Source of the DNA: Candidatus Thorarchaeota archaeon
GTDB taxonomy: Archaea; Asgardarchaeota; Thorarchaeia; Thorarchaeales; Thorarchaeaceae
DNA: 14,985 bases
Assembly (NCBI GenBank): GCA_016840855.1
Contig: JAEORO010000128.1
Location: 1-14,985, forward strand
Direction: 5' to 3'
Shown: positions 1 to 8,664 of the stretch, in pieces
Layout of the letters: each line of letters begins with the position of its first letter
Numbering within the stretch: the stretch's first letter is position 1
The notes under the pieces: generated by a model
What the model was told of the DNA's origin: nothing
The model's input: only the letters and a program-made list of their open reading frames with translations
Databases searched by the model: none
Made by a program: the position numbers and the translations under genes

Positions 1-398
1 ATGCCTGCACTTTACGCCTACGGGGGTGTCACCCTCTATGCCACATCGTTCCAGACGACTTCGGCTTTACTTGCAGAGGCACTTGTCCAGGCCCTAACAC
101 CACATCTCCTTGTACTCATCGCACAAGGATTCAGTTTGGCCTATTCCCCTTTCGCTCGCTGTTACTAAGGGAATCACATTTGTTTTCTCTTCCTGCTCGT
201 ACTAAGATGCTTCAGTTCCGAGCGTTCCCATTCGAGATTTGACCCTCGAACAACATAGGCTATTAACCCATGCTTGGAAGTCCTATTCGGGAACCCTGGG
301 TTCACAGACTTCATGCGTCTACCCCAGGCATTTCGCTGCTTGTCACGCCCTTCATCGGCTAGCCAACCAAGTCATCCACCACTTGCCGTTTAGCGAAT
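1..398 (-). rRNA. rrl: 23S rRNA, 5' portion (continues beyond the left edge; mature 5' end approximate)
   Basis: The reverse complement reads GCTAAACGGCAAGTGGTGGATGACTTGGTTGGCTAGCCGATGAAGGGCGTGACAAGC...GGAACTGAAGCATCTTAGTACGAGCAGGAAGAGAAAACAA...TTAGTAACAGCGAGCGAAAGGGGAA...GAGGGTGACACCCCCGTAG, the conserved domain I of archaeal LSU rRNA. Confidence 0.97.
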
Positions 399-830
399 CG
401 CAAATCTACTCATGTGTTGACACAGTATTACCTGTTGTCCACTAATTGTGAACATGATTATTCCTAATCATGCCAAGGAGTTATTGTAGTAACATTTCCC
501 TACAATTATAATGATCAGTGTACCTCCATCCTCTGCAGTCCACGCCTCAGACTCTCCATGACACACTTCACCGAGTCATCGACGTTGACGGTCCTCCACC
601 GGGAATGATACCTCTCTCATGACCTGGTCCCGGTGAACCTTTGTTCAGCATTTCAGAATTCTGAACTCCGGACCTAACGCTAGCGCACCACTCTATCAGT
701 GAGCGCTCCGCCAGCCTAATTTGCTGACGATTTAAAGCTTGCTATGCATCGATGGTAGTTTTTGTCACCAGCACTACCAGAAACAGCCTCACGACGTTTA
801 CGTCGCATAAGACCTTCTCTTCGACGAGAG
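399..830 (-). other. Structured 5' leader (external transcribed spacer) of the 23S rRNA, including a probable 5' strand of the processing stem (~535-575)
   Basis: No credible ORF and many hairpins: CATGATTA-TTCC-TAATCATG at 453-472 (GGAA GNRA loop on the minus strand), CACCGGGA...TCCCGGTG at 597-635, TGGTAGT...ACTACCA at 753-779, CGACG-TTTA-CGTCG at 792-805. The minus-strand GGTGAAGTGTGTCATGGAGAGTCTGAGGCGTGGACTG resembles archaeal pre-23S processing-stem sequence. Confidence 0.65.
729..742 (-). promoter_or_regulatory. Possible second tandem rRNA promoter
   Basis: Minus strand GCAAGCTTTAAATC contains a TTTAAA box; tandem promoters are common at archaeal rRNA genes. Confidence 0.35.
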
Positions 831-1722: not shown

Positions 1723-2754
1723 ATGTCTGACATTCGAAAACGTTTCACAGATGCGTTGAAAGACACTGTCAATGAATGGAAACATAATAAGAATGTCAAA
1801 GGAATCTTCGTCTACGGGTCCTATGTAAAAGGTACAGCTACAGCAAATTCAGACTTGGATATATGCATCATTTGGGATGCTCCAGAAGCGCCTGTTCGAC
1901 TAATGTCATCACACAAAGAAGTCCTTGTGGACATGGTTTTTATGACTGTCAAGGAGGTCGAGAATGTGTTTGATGGTGTCACGAAAGATGTTACCAAGAT
2001 ATCTGAGGTCATAAACCGTCTGAGAAATTCCCTCGTAATGCACGATACAAATGGATTGGTTAGCAACTGGCAGAAGAAGACCGTCAGTTATGTATGGTCT
2101 GAGGAGTCGATCTCACAAGTCAAAAAGATGGCCTTGGAGTATCTGAACAGAGCAAAGAAATTTGCAGAAGAGGACGAGGGGCCTAGTGCGATTTACGAGA
2201 TGCGTGAAGGAGTGTTTAATCTGGGAAGAGTCATACTAATGGTGAATAATAACTTCCTGATTCTCAAACCAGCAGAAGTGCTGACTGAAGTTAGATTGCT
2301 CGATCCTATGACTTACTCTCTGTTCTTAAGAGCCTTTAAATTAAAGGGCATGGATGAACCTAAGCTTTTGTCTGTGCTTAACGACCTACGCGAGTGGTTG
2401 GATTTAGCTGAAGCCAGAATAGGTGAAGTGAGGATTGATGAACAAGCATTACTTGCTACAGGACTCTTGTCCCAAGCACAAAGAGAATATCATGGGTCAT
2501 TGGGACTAACATACAACGGTGACTATGAGTTGGCTGTTCTGGAGATGCGGCAATCAGCTTGTTCATTGGGTAGAGCACTCATTACACTAAAGGAGTTCTC
2601 CAGTTTAGTAGACGGTGTCTTCATGGATCAACTCAGTGAAACAGAACCAGTATTCTACGAGGAGATTCTGGTTGAACATGGAGCCTACGATATTCTTCCA
2701 AAGGAAATAATGAGAATCATCGGAGAGGCTGAGTTCATCGCACAACGTCTTTAG
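1723..2754 (+). CDS. Pol-beta superfamily (MNT/KNTase-like) nucleotidyltransferase fused to two HEPN-like helical repeats
   Basis: GIFVYGSYVKGTATANSDLDICII carries the GS and DxD motifs, with a third Asp in LVDMVF. Start placed at ATG 1723 after purine-rich GGAGAGGATAGGAAG; the ORF track starts at TTG 1660. Confidence 0.8.
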   Translation: MSDIRKRFTDALKDTVNEWKHNKNVKGIFVYGSYVKGTATANSDLDICIIWDAPEAPVRLMSSHKEVLVDMVFMTVKEVENVFDGVTKDVTKISEVINRLRNSLVMHDTNGLVSNWQKKTVSYVWSEESISQVKKMALEYLNRAKKFAEEDEGPSAIYEMREGVFNLGRVILMVNNNFLILKPAEVLTEVRLLDPMTYSLFLRAFKLKGMDEPKLLSVLNDLREWLDLAEARIGEVRIDEQALLATGLLSQAQREYHGSLGLTYNGDYELAVLEMRQSACSLGRALITLKEFSSLVDGVFMDQLSETEPVFYEEILVEHGAYDILPKEIMRIIGEAEFIAQRL

Positions 2755-2799
2755 GTTAGATTGATTAAGCCAGTTTTAGTTTTTAGAACAGTGTTACTC

Positions 2800-3378
2800 A
2801 TGCAGGACGTTGAGATACTAAAGTTACTGAGCGTCACTTTGACAAGAGATAAACAGACTGTTCTTGAGGAAGAAATCCAAAGATATGCAGCCGCTACTAA
2901 TTGGGTGATAAAACAAATACTAAAGCAACGTTTCTCATCTCGATTACGTGCAATCGAAACTCTGCATGAAGAGTTCTCAAGTAAGTATGATGCCAGACGC
3001 GGTTATCTAGATGATGTATTAAAGACTGCAGGCACAGAAATCAGGCAGCATCGGAAACTAGCGAAGACTATTCGTACCCTACGGGACAAAACTCCATTTT
3101 TTAGACCAGGTCGACTCATTTTTTCTCAACCTATAATTAGATTGGATGATAAAGCGGTCACAATTATTCTCAACGATAGAAACTTACTACCGATACCTTT
3201 TGACAAAAGGAGTAGGAATCGATTTGCGGACAAGTTATCTGCAATTCTCAAGAGTTCCAAAAAAGATGGAGAAATCAACAATAATTATAGTCGTATTAGA
3301 GTCACATTGCACAAAGAGGGATTTGCAGATATTGATATTCAAGCTAAGAAATTGCATTCAATGGAGAACTATTCATAG
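2800..3378 (+). CDS. Basic protein resembling the N-terminal WED/REC lobe of TnpB/Cas12f, lacking RuvC and the Zn ribbon
   Basis: Segments LEEEIQRYAAATNWV, LHEEFSSKY, KTPFFRPGRLIFSQ, RLDDKAVTI, LPIPFD and RIRVTLHKEGFADIDI follow the order of archaeal TnpB N-halves. ATG 2800 preferred over TTG 2761. Confidence 0.6.
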   Translation: MQDVEILKLLSVTLTRDKQTVLEEEIQRYAAATNWVIKQILKQRFSSRLRAIETLHEEFSSKYDARRGYLDDVLKTAGTEIRQHRKLAKTIRTLRDKTPFFRPGRLIFSQPIIRLDDKAVTIILNDRNLLPIPFDKRSRNRFADKLSAILKSSKKDGEINNNYSRIRVTLHKEGFADIDIQAKKLHSMENYS

Positions 3379-4260
3379 AGGAGGGATCCATGAAACTACT
3401 GATCCTGATAGGTCAGCTGTATAGATGATAGCTCCATCTGGAGACCAAGCAATTGATGCAATTCCAGTCACTAGTTGGCCAGTCGCAACTTCAATCTTTT
3501 CTTCTAGAGACCAGACTTTAATTGTACGGTCCCAACTTGCAGAGGCAAGATATTGGCAAGAGGGGTCAACAGATAAAGCACTTGTCAAGTCTGTATGCCC
3601 CGACATCTTGGATTTCTCACTGGTTTCTGTAAGATTGATTTGGGCTATTTCACCACTTTGAAAACCCAAAAAAATATGTGACCCATCTGAGGCTGCTGCC
3701 ATTGACCTTATACGGTCATTCCGTTTTACTAGTGTTTTCTCTGGATTATATGACGATAGATTCCACAATCTACAGGTTCCATCGTATGATGCTGTGACAA
3801 TCTTCTGGGCATCATCAATCAATGCTATACCTGAGATATCAGAATTGTGAGCTTGAAGGTTTCTGATGCTCTTAAGACTCCTCAATGAAAATATCTTTAC
3901 CATCCCATCGCGGGAGCCTGAAGCCCCTTTTCCAAGTTTCAATGAAATTGTGAGCGCTTTCACCTCAGCGGGATGTTTGAGAGTCAAAGTGTCCTCAACA
4001 TTCTTCACATTCCACAATCGTGTGGTCTGGTCCCAGCTGCATGAAAGAATAGCATTTGAACTCCCAACAAAGGACACATCAGTAACAGCGCCATCATGAC
4101 CCGTAATCCCTCGTTTTGTTTTTCCAGATCGAGCATCAATTAAAAGAATCTCGGAATTCATATTTCCGCATGCAATTAAGCGACCTTTTGGAGCAACAGA
4201 AATGCTTGTCAGTGGAGAGGGGGAACTGTCGGTTGGTCTATAGAGGTCTACCTTCTCCAA
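3373..4260 (-). CDS. WD40-repeat beta-propeller protein (about 7 blades)
   Basis: Repeats GHDGAVTDV..SCSWDQTTRLWN, AHNSDIS..TASYDGTCRLWN, GHTDLTSAL..SASWDRTIKVWS; TTG start preceded by GGTGA. Confidence 0.93.
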   Translation of the reverse strand: MEKVDLYRPTDSSPSPLTSISVAPKGRLIACGNMNSEILLIDARSGKTKRGITGHDGAVTDVSFVGSSNAILSCSWDQTTRLWNVKNVEDTLTLKHPAEVKALTISLKLGKGASGSRDGMVKIFSLRSLKSIRNLQAHNSDISGIALIDDAQKIVTASYDGTCRLWNLSSYNPEKTLVKRNDRIRSMAAASDGSHIFLGFQSGEIAQINLTETSEKSKMSGHTDLTSALSVDPSCQYLASASWDRTIKVWSLEEKIEVATGQLVTGIASIAWSPDGAIIYTADLSGSVVSWIPPL

Positions 4261-6668: not shown

Positions 6669-7499
6669 TTAACCTCTATTCGCAATGAACTCGAAACTAT
6701 CCACTGCGTTTTTTTCTGTTGCACCTATTTTTTCTCGGATCAGCGGTTCATATGCTGGGTTGATCTCATATCCTATAGAATTACGTCTTAACTCACGGGC
6801 GACCTTAAGAGTGGTTCCGCTACCTGCAAAGGGATCAAGCACTGTATCACCAACAAATGAGTACAATCGAATGCATCTTCGAGGAAGCTCTTCAGGAAAA
6901 GGTGCAGGATGATTCTCTTGTTTTGCTGAAGCAGTCTGGAAATCCCAAATTGAGTTTTGAACCCATTCCGTAAATTCACTATGCGTTATGGTGGATGCTT
7001 CTTTGATTGTTTTAGGGATGGATGGTCTCCGCCCACTCTTCGAAAAAACGATAATCCATTCATATGGGTAAGTTGAAAGAAGGTTAGGTGGATAGGGATA
7101 GGAACCCCAGGAACTAAATCTGGCAGCTTTTCGTTTATCCCAGATATACAGTGAATGGAGGTACATGTTTCCAAGAGATGTCATAAATTCCTCTAGTTCG
7201 GGCAAGACAGTTTTTGTGACTCTTCGATTGAATTTGGTATTCTTACCAGTTAGAAGAATTGGCATGATGTTAATGATTAGCTTGCCATCAGGCACGAGCT
7301 TCTTCACGCACTCGCTAAAGACATCACAGATTGATGTGAAATATTCATCAAAGGTTGTAGTTCCCTGTCCAATTCCTTTGTTCTCACCATAATCTTTTAG
7401 ATTCCAATAAGGAGGTGATGTAACAACGAGATGAACAGATGAGTCTTGCACTTCATCCATACTTGTACTATCACCAATCACGATCTTATGATGAGTCAA
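6669..7499 (-). CDS. Amino-DNA methyltransferase (m4C/m6A), beta class
   Basis: Catalytic VTSPPYW near the N-terminus, HPAPFPEEL, and C-terminal SAM motif VLDPFAGSGTT. Confidence 0.93.
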   Translation of the reverse strand: MTHHKIVIGDSTSMDEVQDSSVHLVVTSPPYWNLKDYGENKGIGQGTTTFDEYFTSICDVFSECVKKLVPDGKLIINIMPILLTGKNTKFNRRVTKTVLPELEEFMTSLGNMYLHSLYIWDKRKAARFSSWGSYPYPPNLLSTYPYEWIIVFSKSGRRPSIPKTIKEASTITHSEFTEWVQNSIWDFQTASAKQENHPAPFPEELPRRCIRLYSFVGDTVLDPFAGSGTTLKVARELRRNSIGYEINPAYEPLIREKIGATEKNAVDSFEFIANRG

Positions 7500-8602
7500 T
7501 TTTGGCTCCTGCCCCCTTTAGCAAGGTCCCAGACTATTATCTGCTCTTTTCGCTTGGTTCTGTTAATTTTATCCCAGAGGCCACTTGCTGTTTTTGTGTA
7601 TTCCCGTTCGACCACATACGGATTGATCCAAGGAGCAATCTCTGTGAAGAATTCAGATCCCTTGATTAGATTTCCATGAACCAAACGGTCTCCTACAACA
7701 AATATAATGAGCGAGTGTTCATGGATTACTTTGTCAATCTCAACCAGCGCTCTCCTCATGTCTTTTCTATAAGTCGAGTGTCTTTGAATGAGCCCTTTCC
7801 GGACCAAGGCTCGATCCATATCAAGTATCTCAAGTACAATCTTTGAGTAGTAGCCTGTGTAGTCCAGAGCATCAAAATATGGAGGGCTCGTGTATACAAT
7901 ATCTATTGAATTCTCCTCAATGATTTCAGATATCTGACGTGAGTCATAAGTATGAATCTGTGCTGGAGGTCCAACATTCAAGAACTCTAGGTGCTTCTTT
8001 GCCTTTCTATGGAAAGTCGAGTAGAAGTCAATCTTACGAAGTGGGAGATTGATACGACCTATTGAAGTGGAGGTCCATAACCACCCATTGCATGCTCGTG
8101 CGGCAACACAAATTGCTCCATAGAGTGCAGAAAGAAGATAAGATGGAAAAGTAGTTGAAACTTGGACCATCCTCATGATTTGGTCTGCTGTATCTGGATG
8201 AAAGAACTTAGCAGGTGCAGTAGGCATTCTTGGGAAACTGGTTTGCGATTGAGCAGCAGATATTGCTGAAGACAGAGTATCAAGAACTAATTCTGCATCA
8301 ATAAGTTCAGTCTTCCCTCTAGCAATTATACACGCAAGAGGATTGTTATCAACGCCAATGGCTCTCATTCCATGTGCTTGAGCTTCATAAACGATTGTGC
8401 CAGTTCCACAAAAAGGGTCCAGAAGAACAGCAGTTGATGGGAGTTGTGAGATGACATGTGCTGCATCTATTGCAGACATCTTCCCTCGATAGGGGTAGAT
8501 GCCATGAATAGATTTTGGATTACTGACTTTGCTAAAATGATTCAAAGTGATTTTTGGGCTTGATTCACAGAGAACTCCATTGCGAACTCTTGGCTCCTGC
8601 AT
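7496..8602 (-). CDS. Amino-DNA methyltransferase (probably m4C), alpha class
   Basis: HGIYPYRGKM, with SAM motif LLDPFCGTGT preceding catalytic YTSPPYF. Start uncertain (ATG 8602 or GTG 8629). The stop overlaps the next start (TTGA). Confidence 0.88.
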   Translation of the reverse strand: MQEPRVRNGVLCESSPKITLNHFSKVSNPKSIHGIYPYRGKMSAIDAAHVISQLPSTAVLLDPFCGTGTIVYEAQAHGMRAIGVDNNPLACIIARGKTELIDAELVLDTLSSAISAAQSQTSFPRMPTAPAKFFHPDTADQIMRMVQVSTTFPSYLLSALYGAICVAARACNGWLWTSTSIGRINLPLRKIDFYSTFHRKAKKHLEFLNVGPPAQIHTYDSRQISEIIEENSIDIVYTSPPYFDALDYTGYYSKIVLEILDMDRALVRKGLIQRHSTYRKDMRRALVEIDKVIHEHSLIIFVVGDRLVHGNLIKGSEFFTEIAPWINPYVVEREYTKTASGLWDKINRTKRKEQIIVWDLAKGGRSQN

Positions 8603-8664
8603 AGTACTTCTACCTAGACAATACTTCACTAAAAATCTGCCCAGTTGTTTAGGACATCATGAAG

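Follow-up and report, generated by a model that had tools for sequence, protein, structure and literature searches.

A nuclease-less TnpB-like recognition lobe kept as a single-copy core gene in a family of Thorarchaeia

The window analysed here, positions 1 to 14,985 of contig JAEORO010000128.1 of a Candidatus Thorarchaeota archaeon (assembly GCA_016840855.1), carries a short gene whose product is predicted to be the recognition lobe of a TnpB-type nuclease, WED plus REC, and nothing else. Our data show that this WED-REC gene stands without nuclease, transposon or guide-RNA parts, occupies one conserved position in most genomes of its class and is under purifying selection. It probably arose when the recognition lobe of a TnpB was domesticated in the ancestor of the family, and would now act as a non-cutting nucleic-acid binder. 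A first-pass annotation, made from the letters of the DNA, had proposed an exaptation of this kind; the fold, the truncation at a domain boundary, the absent nuclease parts, the fixation and the selection laid out below bear out the exaptation itself, and a role as a nucleic-acid-binding protein may be read from fold and charge. The gene and its parts are as follows.

2800..3378 (+): WED-REC-only gene, 192 aa, ending in a TAG stop codon (3376-3378)
2809..2832 (+): first WED strand, residues 4-11 (ILKLLSVT; DSSP strand 4-11)
2845..3069 (+): REC-like helical insert, residues 16-90, with helices 16-43, 48-62 and 67-90
3112..3348 (+): rest of the WED barrel, residues 105-183, six strands and a flanking helix
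3193..3222 (+): IPFDKRSRNR, the signature of the family, residues 132-141, a basic stretch where a strand of the WED domain passes into a helix

The gene lies in an open frame of 2761..3378 (+) and reads through 192 intact codons from the ATG at 2800, as first described. A TTG at 2761 offers a possible longer start, which is unused in relatives, since orthologues all begin at the matching ATG. The protein is very basic (isoelectric point, pI, of 10.0; net K+R-D-E of +13), and this is a property of the whole family, whose 33 aligned members have a median pI of 10.0 and a range of 9.7-10.5. In the same alignment L9, S11, V12 and L14 in the region of the first WED strand are conserved in at least 90% of sequences, and Y29, N34, I37, Y69 and A77 of the REC-like insert are invariant, as are R95, R165, R167 and G174. 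The signature IPFDKRSRNR, which worked as a search pattern for family members, has P133, D135, K136, S138 and N140 invariant and F134, R137, R139 and R141 conserved in at least 90%; its basic junction might contact phosphates.

An AlphaFold2 model of the protein, built from the alignment of the 33 members, has a predicted local distance difference test score (pLDDT) of 92.9 and a predicted TM-score (pTM) of 0.87. It starts with a strand (4-11), continues with three long helices (16-90) and ends with six strands (105-108, 113-115, 119-123, 129-134, 163-170 and 176-183) accompanied by a flanking helix (136-151, modelled as helices 136-141 and 143-151). Foldseek returned 32 matches in the PDB at E<=1e-3, nearly all of them Cas12f, TnpB or Cas12k, with SpCas12f1 (9i8y_A) at the top (E 6.4e-7, TMq 0.65). 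Upon re-alignment with VIA-align 82 of 995 chains reach a Z of at least 8; SpCas12f1 9i8y_A gives Z 14.2 with a root-mean-square deviation of 4.1 over 177 of the 192 residues (model 2-191 on chain 3-217), and ISDra2 TnpB 8h1j_A gives Z 10.9 (model 1-191 on chain 1-180). A scan of 48,161 solved chains that did not depend on Foldseek has only Cas12, TnpB, Fanzor and TranC proteins in its first 30 rows (Z 12.6-6.9), the first chain outside these groups appearing at Z 6.5 with 88 residues aligned. TnpB/Fanzor-type transposases were also returned for the model from a viral structure library.

In ISDra2 TnpB the WED domain comprises residues 1-12 and 117-176, REC residues 13-116, and RuvC begins at 185; WED forms a seven-stranded barrel flanked by a helix, with REC inserted between strands 1 and 2 (PMC10097598). 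Since the model aligns through residue 180 of this TnpB, whose WED ends at 176, the protein appears to be a complete WED+REC lobe that stops at the RuvC boundary. The order of segments read from the letters alone, that of a TnpB N-half ending before RuvC, agrees both with the layout of the model and with the alignments to 8h1j_A and 9i8y_A, and the structural match to WED/REC predicted at that time is thus found with Cas12f and ISDra2 TnpB alike.

The same comparisons bear on the idea that the family is an older independent lineage, or a case of convergence – a free-standing protein made of an oligonucleotide/oligosaccharide-binding (OB) barrel plus helices, source or sibling of the TnpB lobe. 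Such an origin would suit both the weak sequence likeness to TnpB (see below) and a locus with no transposon relic, be it ends or tnpA. We nevertheless regard it as very unlikely: the REC helices lie between barrel strands 1 and 2, in common over 165-177 residues, and this inserted-REC topology was met among the 48,161 solved chains only in TnpB/Cas12/Fanzor-type proteins. Moreover, the WED-REC family is limited to one archaeal family, while TnpB is spread across bacteria and archaea.

As far as sequence goes, the likeness to TnpB is weak, although it keeps the register of the N-terminal region in archaeal TnpBs of IS607 type. When 400 Asgard genomes were searched with the family profile, the three best matches outside the family had per-genome E values of 2.1e-5, 1.6e-4 and 3.1e-4 and covered 10-93, 8-95 and 12-131 of the profile. 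The proteins matched, each at its N-terminus, are a TnpB of 459 aa, a TnpB of 444 aa with an adjoining serine recombinase (IS607-like) and a truncated TnpB-like frame of 233 aa. Another weak match outside the family has E 6.7e-3 (genome G116); two more, of E 6.8e-3 (G236) and E 5.1e-3 (G003, contig C4), lie in open reading frames (ORFs) unlike TnpB and were discarded. Aligned by hhalign with 24 archaeal TnpBs, family residues 1-94 are placed on TnpB 21-115 (Prob 35%, E 4e-4; Prob 23.5%, E 8.6e-4 in a repeat local run), the first WED strand aligning with the N-terminal strand of these TnpBs and the REC-like insert being the region of the weak in-register match. The nearest look-alikes in a protein-language-model atlas are clusters named 'transposase fragment', PF27234, PF27229 and PF27142 (scores 0.96-0.97, low recognition); according to precomputed annotation PF27234 and PF27142 sit beside PF07282 on full archaeal TnpBs. 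A profile search of PDB sequences with the family returned 0 matches at E<=10, and the 33 members searched against Pfam and NCBIfam gave noise, with ThiI_fer in 8/33 at E 0.021 or worse.

No RuvC or Zn-ribbon remnant had been noticed at the locus in the first place, and profile searches agree. The source genome (3.36 Mb in 259 contigs, 92% complete) has one match each to PF01385 (RuvC) and PF07282 (Zn-ribbon), both in a full-length 407-aa TnpB on contig C54; neither profile finds anything in the contig of the WED-REC gene, and with these profiles the genome yielded neither RuvC nor Zn-ribbon as a gene standing alone. The possibility of a split TnpB was rejected on this ground. What follows the gene on its 3' side is a WD40 gene on the opposite strand, not RuvC, and neither the longer-protein search nor the exhaustive family search gave a fused RuvC form. 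With the TnpB clade native to this genome, hhalign also aligned residues 109-169 weakly to the RuvC-I region (Prob 0.4-6.6%); this match is spurious, because the structure puts these residues in the WED barrel. As had been stated for the neighbourhood, tnpA is not present among the ORFs of the window, nor is any other transposase; the 15-kb window has no CRISPR-like or terminal repeats (chance two-copy repeats only) and no tRNA, and an Rfam scan of it detected the 5' end of 23S rRNA only and no omegaRNA-type family.

The WED-REC gene also has no free non-coding room for a 3' guide RNA, nor for an insertion-sequence end. It overlaps the WD40 gene tail to tail by 6 nt, and the tail-to-tail gap between the two has a median of 4 nt in 48 loci. 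The first-pass annotation had made the stop codons themselves overlap; the genes do, but the stops do not coincide, that of the WD40 gene being the reverse complement of 3373-3375 and that of the WED-REC gene following it directly at 3376-3378. The + strand 3' of the gene folds no better than shuffled sequence (z +0.43).

Relatives of the protein are numerous and uniformly short. A word-indexed search gave 124 of them at E<=1e-3 (32-81% identity, 116-243 aa), Thorarchaeota or other Asgard where named, and no longer homologue (337-2000 aa) among 1,406 candidates. An exhaustive HMMER search of 1.84 billion cluster representatives gave 20 members at E<=1e-3 of 68-377 aa; the sole long one (377 aa) owes its length to a C-terminal helical-repeat tail without a Pfam match, not to RuvC. 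By the family profile the gene is present in 80/87 genomes of the class, including 23/24 of high quality, in 16/17 genera and in 79/85 other genomes of the source's own family, essentially as a single copy, and the same-length orthologues that had been sought are thereby found. True matches among the 400 Asgard genomes are confined to one family; the other 314 genomes scored gave weak matches only, on TnpBs. Six genomes of the same family have no match, and the four of them that were checked have no upstream nucleotidyltransferase (NTase) gene either (0/4); the absence in some metagenome-assembled genomes (MAGs) is probably explained by the locus bordering 23S rRNA and having stayed unassembled there.

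Gene order around the WED-REC gene was compared in 49 loci fetched from species-representative genomes. It is the same in 49/49: RNase PH (divergent), NTase, WED-REC, WD40 (convergent), M28 peptidase and FAD-dependent reductase. The synteny expected with the NTase gene holds upstream in all 49, and that with the WD40 gene in 48/48 loci that reach beyond the WED-REC gene; two divergent members from metagenomes are found in the same gene block. In the sister family, represented by a single genome, the NTase (32% identity) is located in another neighbourhood, and the WED-REC and WD40 genes are not present.

The ratio of nonsynonymous to synonymous substitution rates (dN/dS; Nei-Gojobori, orthologue pairs with dS 0.05-1.2) is 0.044-0.267 for the WED-REC gene (median 0.137; 42 pair rows, or 27 distinct pairs after merging genomes present under two locus identifiers). 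For the same pairs the medians are 0.078 for NTase, 0.117 for WD40, 0.138 for M28, 0.068 for RNase PH and 0.104 for the reductase. The values are comparable, therefore the gene is constrained as strongly as its housekeeping neighbours, and the prediction of a dN/dS below 1 is confirmed.

These results decide on recent decay, by which the gene would be what a broken TnpB has left of its N-terminal part, or one half of a split TnpB, the N-terminal one, with the nuclease half encoded elsewhere. N-terminal TnpB fragments are indeed common in genomes of the class, and the short transposase-fragment clusters of the protein atlas resemble the WED-REC protein. A decaying remnant is hard to reconcile with a gene found once and in the same place in 80 of the 87 genomes, with a dN/dS of about 0.14 and with a site at which relatives have no full-length TnpB: whole matches sit in open frames of 184-257 aa without a fused RuvC form, and in-frame stops are limited to single ones in nine matches, whose open frames are 185-232 aa. 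A separate nuclease half is countered by the lack of a stand-alone RuvC or Zn-ribbon gene in the source genome and by 15 genomes that bear the WED-REC gene and have no PF07282 match. Decay is already contradicted by these observations, and we hold it to be extremely improbable.

Several variants of the gene deserve mention. In several genera an insertion of ~50 aa between REC helices 2 and 3 yields forms of 223-257 aa at the same syntenic position; such forms are found at loci L040-L050 and L074, with the insert consensus ...FGRRFKY.... In one divergent lineage (L072:4932-6086, +) the WED-REC protein is fused to a C-terminal helical-repeat domain of ~190 aa without a Pfam match, and this locus is precisely the one where the convergent WD40 gene is missing, which hints that the WED-REC protein is functionally tied to a scaffold for protein interactions. 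One MAG (G018) has two complete syntenic blocks, L024 with L050, one with a short-form and one with a long-form WED-REC gene; a mixed bin is a more probable cause than duplication.

Resident insertion sequences are common in the class and vary greatly in number. Zn-ribbon PF07282 matches occur in 70/87 genomes, 1-45 in each, and the clade of the source genome's own TnpB in 32/87, with 1-20 matches and many fragments and stops. The WED-REC gene is independent of these elements, because 15/17 class genomes without a PF07282 match retain it, which argues both against a split nuclease and against a guide borrowed from such elements. As a separate observation, the resident mobile TnpB clade has many otherwise full-length copies (~409 aa) with exactly one in-frame TGA (genomes G029, G038, G039, G042 and G054).

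The first-pass annotation had suggested that a guide might be supplied in trans, and we found no support for it; omegaRNAs of insertion sequences are contradicted as a source by the 15 gene-bearing genomes just mentioned and could not be a general guide. More broadly, the lobe might still be RNA-guided, loading a guide or scaffold RNA encoded elsewhere and targeting without cutting, as a minimal TldR-like binder that possibly recruits a neighbour-encoded partner. The strongly basic protein would be suited to this, WED and REC of TnpB share in binding the omegaRNA and the heteroduplex (PMC10097598), and stand-alone omegaRNAs working in trans have been described (PMC10691335). However, in TnpB the omegaRNA scaffold depends on RuvC as well as WED, and the heteroduplex channel on RuvC together with WED and REC (PMC10097598), and RuvC is what this protein does not have. 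Nor does the locus offer adjoining non-coding room, with a median of 58 nt of promoter-like spacer upstream and of 4 nt downstream, and the absence of excess folding on the 3' side and an Rfam result restricted to 23S rRNA point the same way. Guide-RNA use thus seems the less likely mode of action, and we consider a lobe that is still RNA-guided distinctly unlikely. A little less likely again is the particular version in which it is programmable by a small RNA encoded elsewhere and the effector is a separate host protein, for example the WD40 scaffold or the NTase. If true, at ~190 aa it would be the smallest RNA-guided targeting protein known, and would have a core Asgard cellular function.

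Domestication of the recognition lobe as a guide-independent binder is the explanation we favour, and its course is likely to have been as follows. A TnpB gene, its donor probably an archaeal IS607-type TnpB, would have become fixed downstream of the NTase gene in the ancestor of the source's Thorarchaeia family, with the loss of RuvC, Zn-ribbon and 3' omegaRNA. From then on vertical descent would have carried it along as a core gene, present once per genome, transcribed from a promoter of its own and held by purifying selection. The protein might bind a short double-stranded motif or structured duplex through its basic WED/REC cleft, independently of any guide, and act as a regulator or as an architectural or adaptor protein. 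In TnpB the duplex of the transposon-associated motif (TAM) is held in a cleft of WED and REC alone (PMC10097598), and we prefer guide-independent duplex binding because this cleft is the only nucleic-acid site made wholly of WED and REC. The pI of 10, the net charge of +13 and the invariant basic and aromatic residues bear on this role, and together with the predicted fold they suggest non-catalytic nucleic-acid binding. If the favoured explanation holds, double-stranded DNA (motif) is the likeliest ligand of the protein, though at less than even odds, with structured RNA a slightly less probable ligand and some other role less probable again.

Several points weigh against domestication from TnpB as just set out. 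Homology to TnpB rests mainly on the predicted structure: the hhalign Prob of 23-35% is below the usual confidence thresholds, hhalign gave no N-terminal match to the genome's own TnpB clade, and Pfam (best E 0.14) and NCBIfam (best E 0.19) give noise, the scanned Pfam being probably without PF27234, PF27229 and PF27142. Finally, the direction from TnpB to the short form is argued from distribution only, that is from the confinement of the short form to one archaeal family and from a sister family with the NTase and without WED-REC, and that sister family is represented by one genome.

How does the WED-REC protein compare with known systems? Like the TnpBs of IS200/IS605/IS607 elements (ISDra2, PDB 8H1J/8EXA), it has the seven-stranded WED barrel with REC helices after strand 1; unlike them, it has no RuvC, Zn-ribbon/TNB or C-terminal domain, and its gene has no adjacent omegaRNA, tnpA or transposon ends, being single-copy, immobile and inherited as a core gene. 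Among TnpBs, the weak in-register N-terminal similarity is with archaeal IS607-type proteins (PF27234+PF07282). Cas12f of type V-F (SpCas12f1 9I8Y, AsCas12f 8J12) gives the best match of all solved chains (Z 14.2-12.5), but the WED-REC protein is half its length, without RuvC or TNB domain, and its gene is without a CRISPR array. TldR and the inactivated TnpBs Ri-7, Ri-8 and those associated with flagellin, DppD and sigma factor are alike in being immobilised, in having a host function without cutting and in their conserved link to a host gene; they are described as keeping a mutated RuvC fold, or as missing no more than RuvC-III, with a long 3' untranslated region for the guide RNA (PMC10691335). 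The WED-REC gene, in contrast, lacks the whole nuclease lobe and the guide region, and the family would be a more radical exaptation of TnpB than TldR. Short viral proteins also match the fold, namely a 243-aa protein of Campylobacter phage F379 (E 7.8e-7) and a 190-aa Pithovirus protein (E 0.023). These are few among many full TnpB/Fanzor matches, no sequence relationship between them and the WED-REC family was found, and they belong to mobile or viral genomes, whereas WED-REC belongs to the chromosomal core genes of a family of archaea. Nuclease-less recognition lobes may therefore arise repeatedly. A full-text literature search, with supplements and subscription-only papers outside its reach, turned up TnpBs that are inactivated or truncated at the C-terminus (without RuvC-III), but no published description of a stand-alone WED-REC protein devoid of RuvC.

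To our knowledge, the host-recruited descendants of TnpB, that is Cas12 effectors, Cas12k, Cas12m, TldR and other inactivated forms, all retain the two-lobed scaffold. The present family indicates that the recognition lobe can fold by itself and, as a gene with one copy at one locus, persist under purifying selection across a family of archaea, which widens the range of routes by which transposon nucleases are exapted. It presents WED+REC as an autonomous evolutionary module, with a bearing on how TnpB and Cas12 were assembled, and provides a 190-aa natural scaffold whose DNA/RNA specificity is open to direct assay. Asgard archaea are the closest prokaryotic relatives of eukaryotes. If the protein does read a short duplex motif, a cellular DNA-binding factor would have been born there from the TAM-reading part of a mobile-element nuclease.

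The genes and elements that surround the WED-REC gene in the window are the following.

1-403 (-): 5' end of archaeal 23S rRNA (Rfam RF02540, 284 bits), cut by the window edge
1723..2754 (+): NTase gene, 343 aa, upstream on the same strand (Pfam NTP_transf_2, 2.4e-9)
2755..2769 (+): conserved upstream block GTTAGATTGATTAAG, ~35 nt before the WED-REC ATG
3373..4260 (-): WD40 beta-propeller gene, convergent (Pfam WD40, 1.9e-34)

The NTase raises an alternative in which the WED-REC protein is an RNA-binding specificity or accessory subunit that works with this enzyme in RNA 3'-end metabolism. The NTase gene is directly upstream on the same strand in all 49 loci, and RNase PH (TIGR01966, 346 bits) and the 23S rRNA 5' end adjoin. 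The NTase model (AlphaFold2, pLDDT 91) has a KNTase/ANT(4')-like two-domain fold, as found in nucleic-acid-tailing enzymes such as HalB; its top Foldseek match is ANT(4') (E 1.2e-5, TMq 0.45), with HalB and LinB matching too. However, a block of about ten genes is syntenic throughout the family, and adjacency therefore says little on function; a conserved promoter-like block of its own precedes the WED-REC gene, which makes the case for an operon with the NTase weaker, and the sister-family genome has its NTase elsewhere, without a WED-REC gene. Furthermore, the catalytic carboxylates of the NTase are altered in 3/17 orthologues, with the WED-REC gene intact in those loci: in the GS..DxD motif L022 shows DLN, whereas L030 and L039 both show VLD, and L039 is also without the third Asp. 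A predicted complex of the two proteins (score 0.00, mark 0.32) weighs neither for nor against binding. We consider this alternative possible though unlikely.

The spacer between the NTase stop and the WED-REC ATG (median 58 nt) contains the conserved block and, ~10 nt 5' of the ATG, a conserved GTG. The block, GTTAGATTGATTAGG, has a core that is invariant in 32 aligned loci, and as a whole it is near-invariant even where the proteins are 30-45% identical (spacers of L003-L051). Most likely it is the WED-REC gene's own promoter of the type BRE (transcription factor B recognition element)/TATA. This ordinary promoter is the simpler reading because the neighbours have their own, equally conserved and different A/T-rich blocks: ...CTAATTAATAG for RNase PH, ...CCTTCATAGG for M28 and ...CCTTTAAAC for WD40. 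The blocks of RNase PH and M28 are at a similar distance from the ATG as that of WED-REC, and the others are further upstream; together they suggest a Thorarchaeia TATA-like consensus ending in ATAG(G). The 20 sequencing runs with the locus, from 6 studies, are all DNA metagenomes.

Other readings of the spacer were considered and rejected. The block contains TTGAT, which is the TAM of ISDra2 (PMC10097598), but we do not regard it as a TAM-like operator or regulon site. The 15-mer has no other copy upstream of a gene in the genome, its second match being inside a coding sequence, and the 10-mer has 19 genome copies versus an estimated ~15 expected from base composition, the other matches being without comparable upstream context. 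In some loci compensatory changes of an upstream hairpin seemed visible by eye; RNAalifold run on 32 sequences predicted no consensus RNA structure in the spacer, and the hairpin was dismissed.

Two minor observations concern the rest of the window. The listed ORFs 3..242 and 239..445 lie inside the 23S rRNA and are spurious. At 6669-8629 (-) a pair of DNA methyltransferase genes (N6_N4_Mtase) lies side by side, without a visible restriction enzyme; the pair is conserved in most syntenic loci, and the two look like orphan core methylases.

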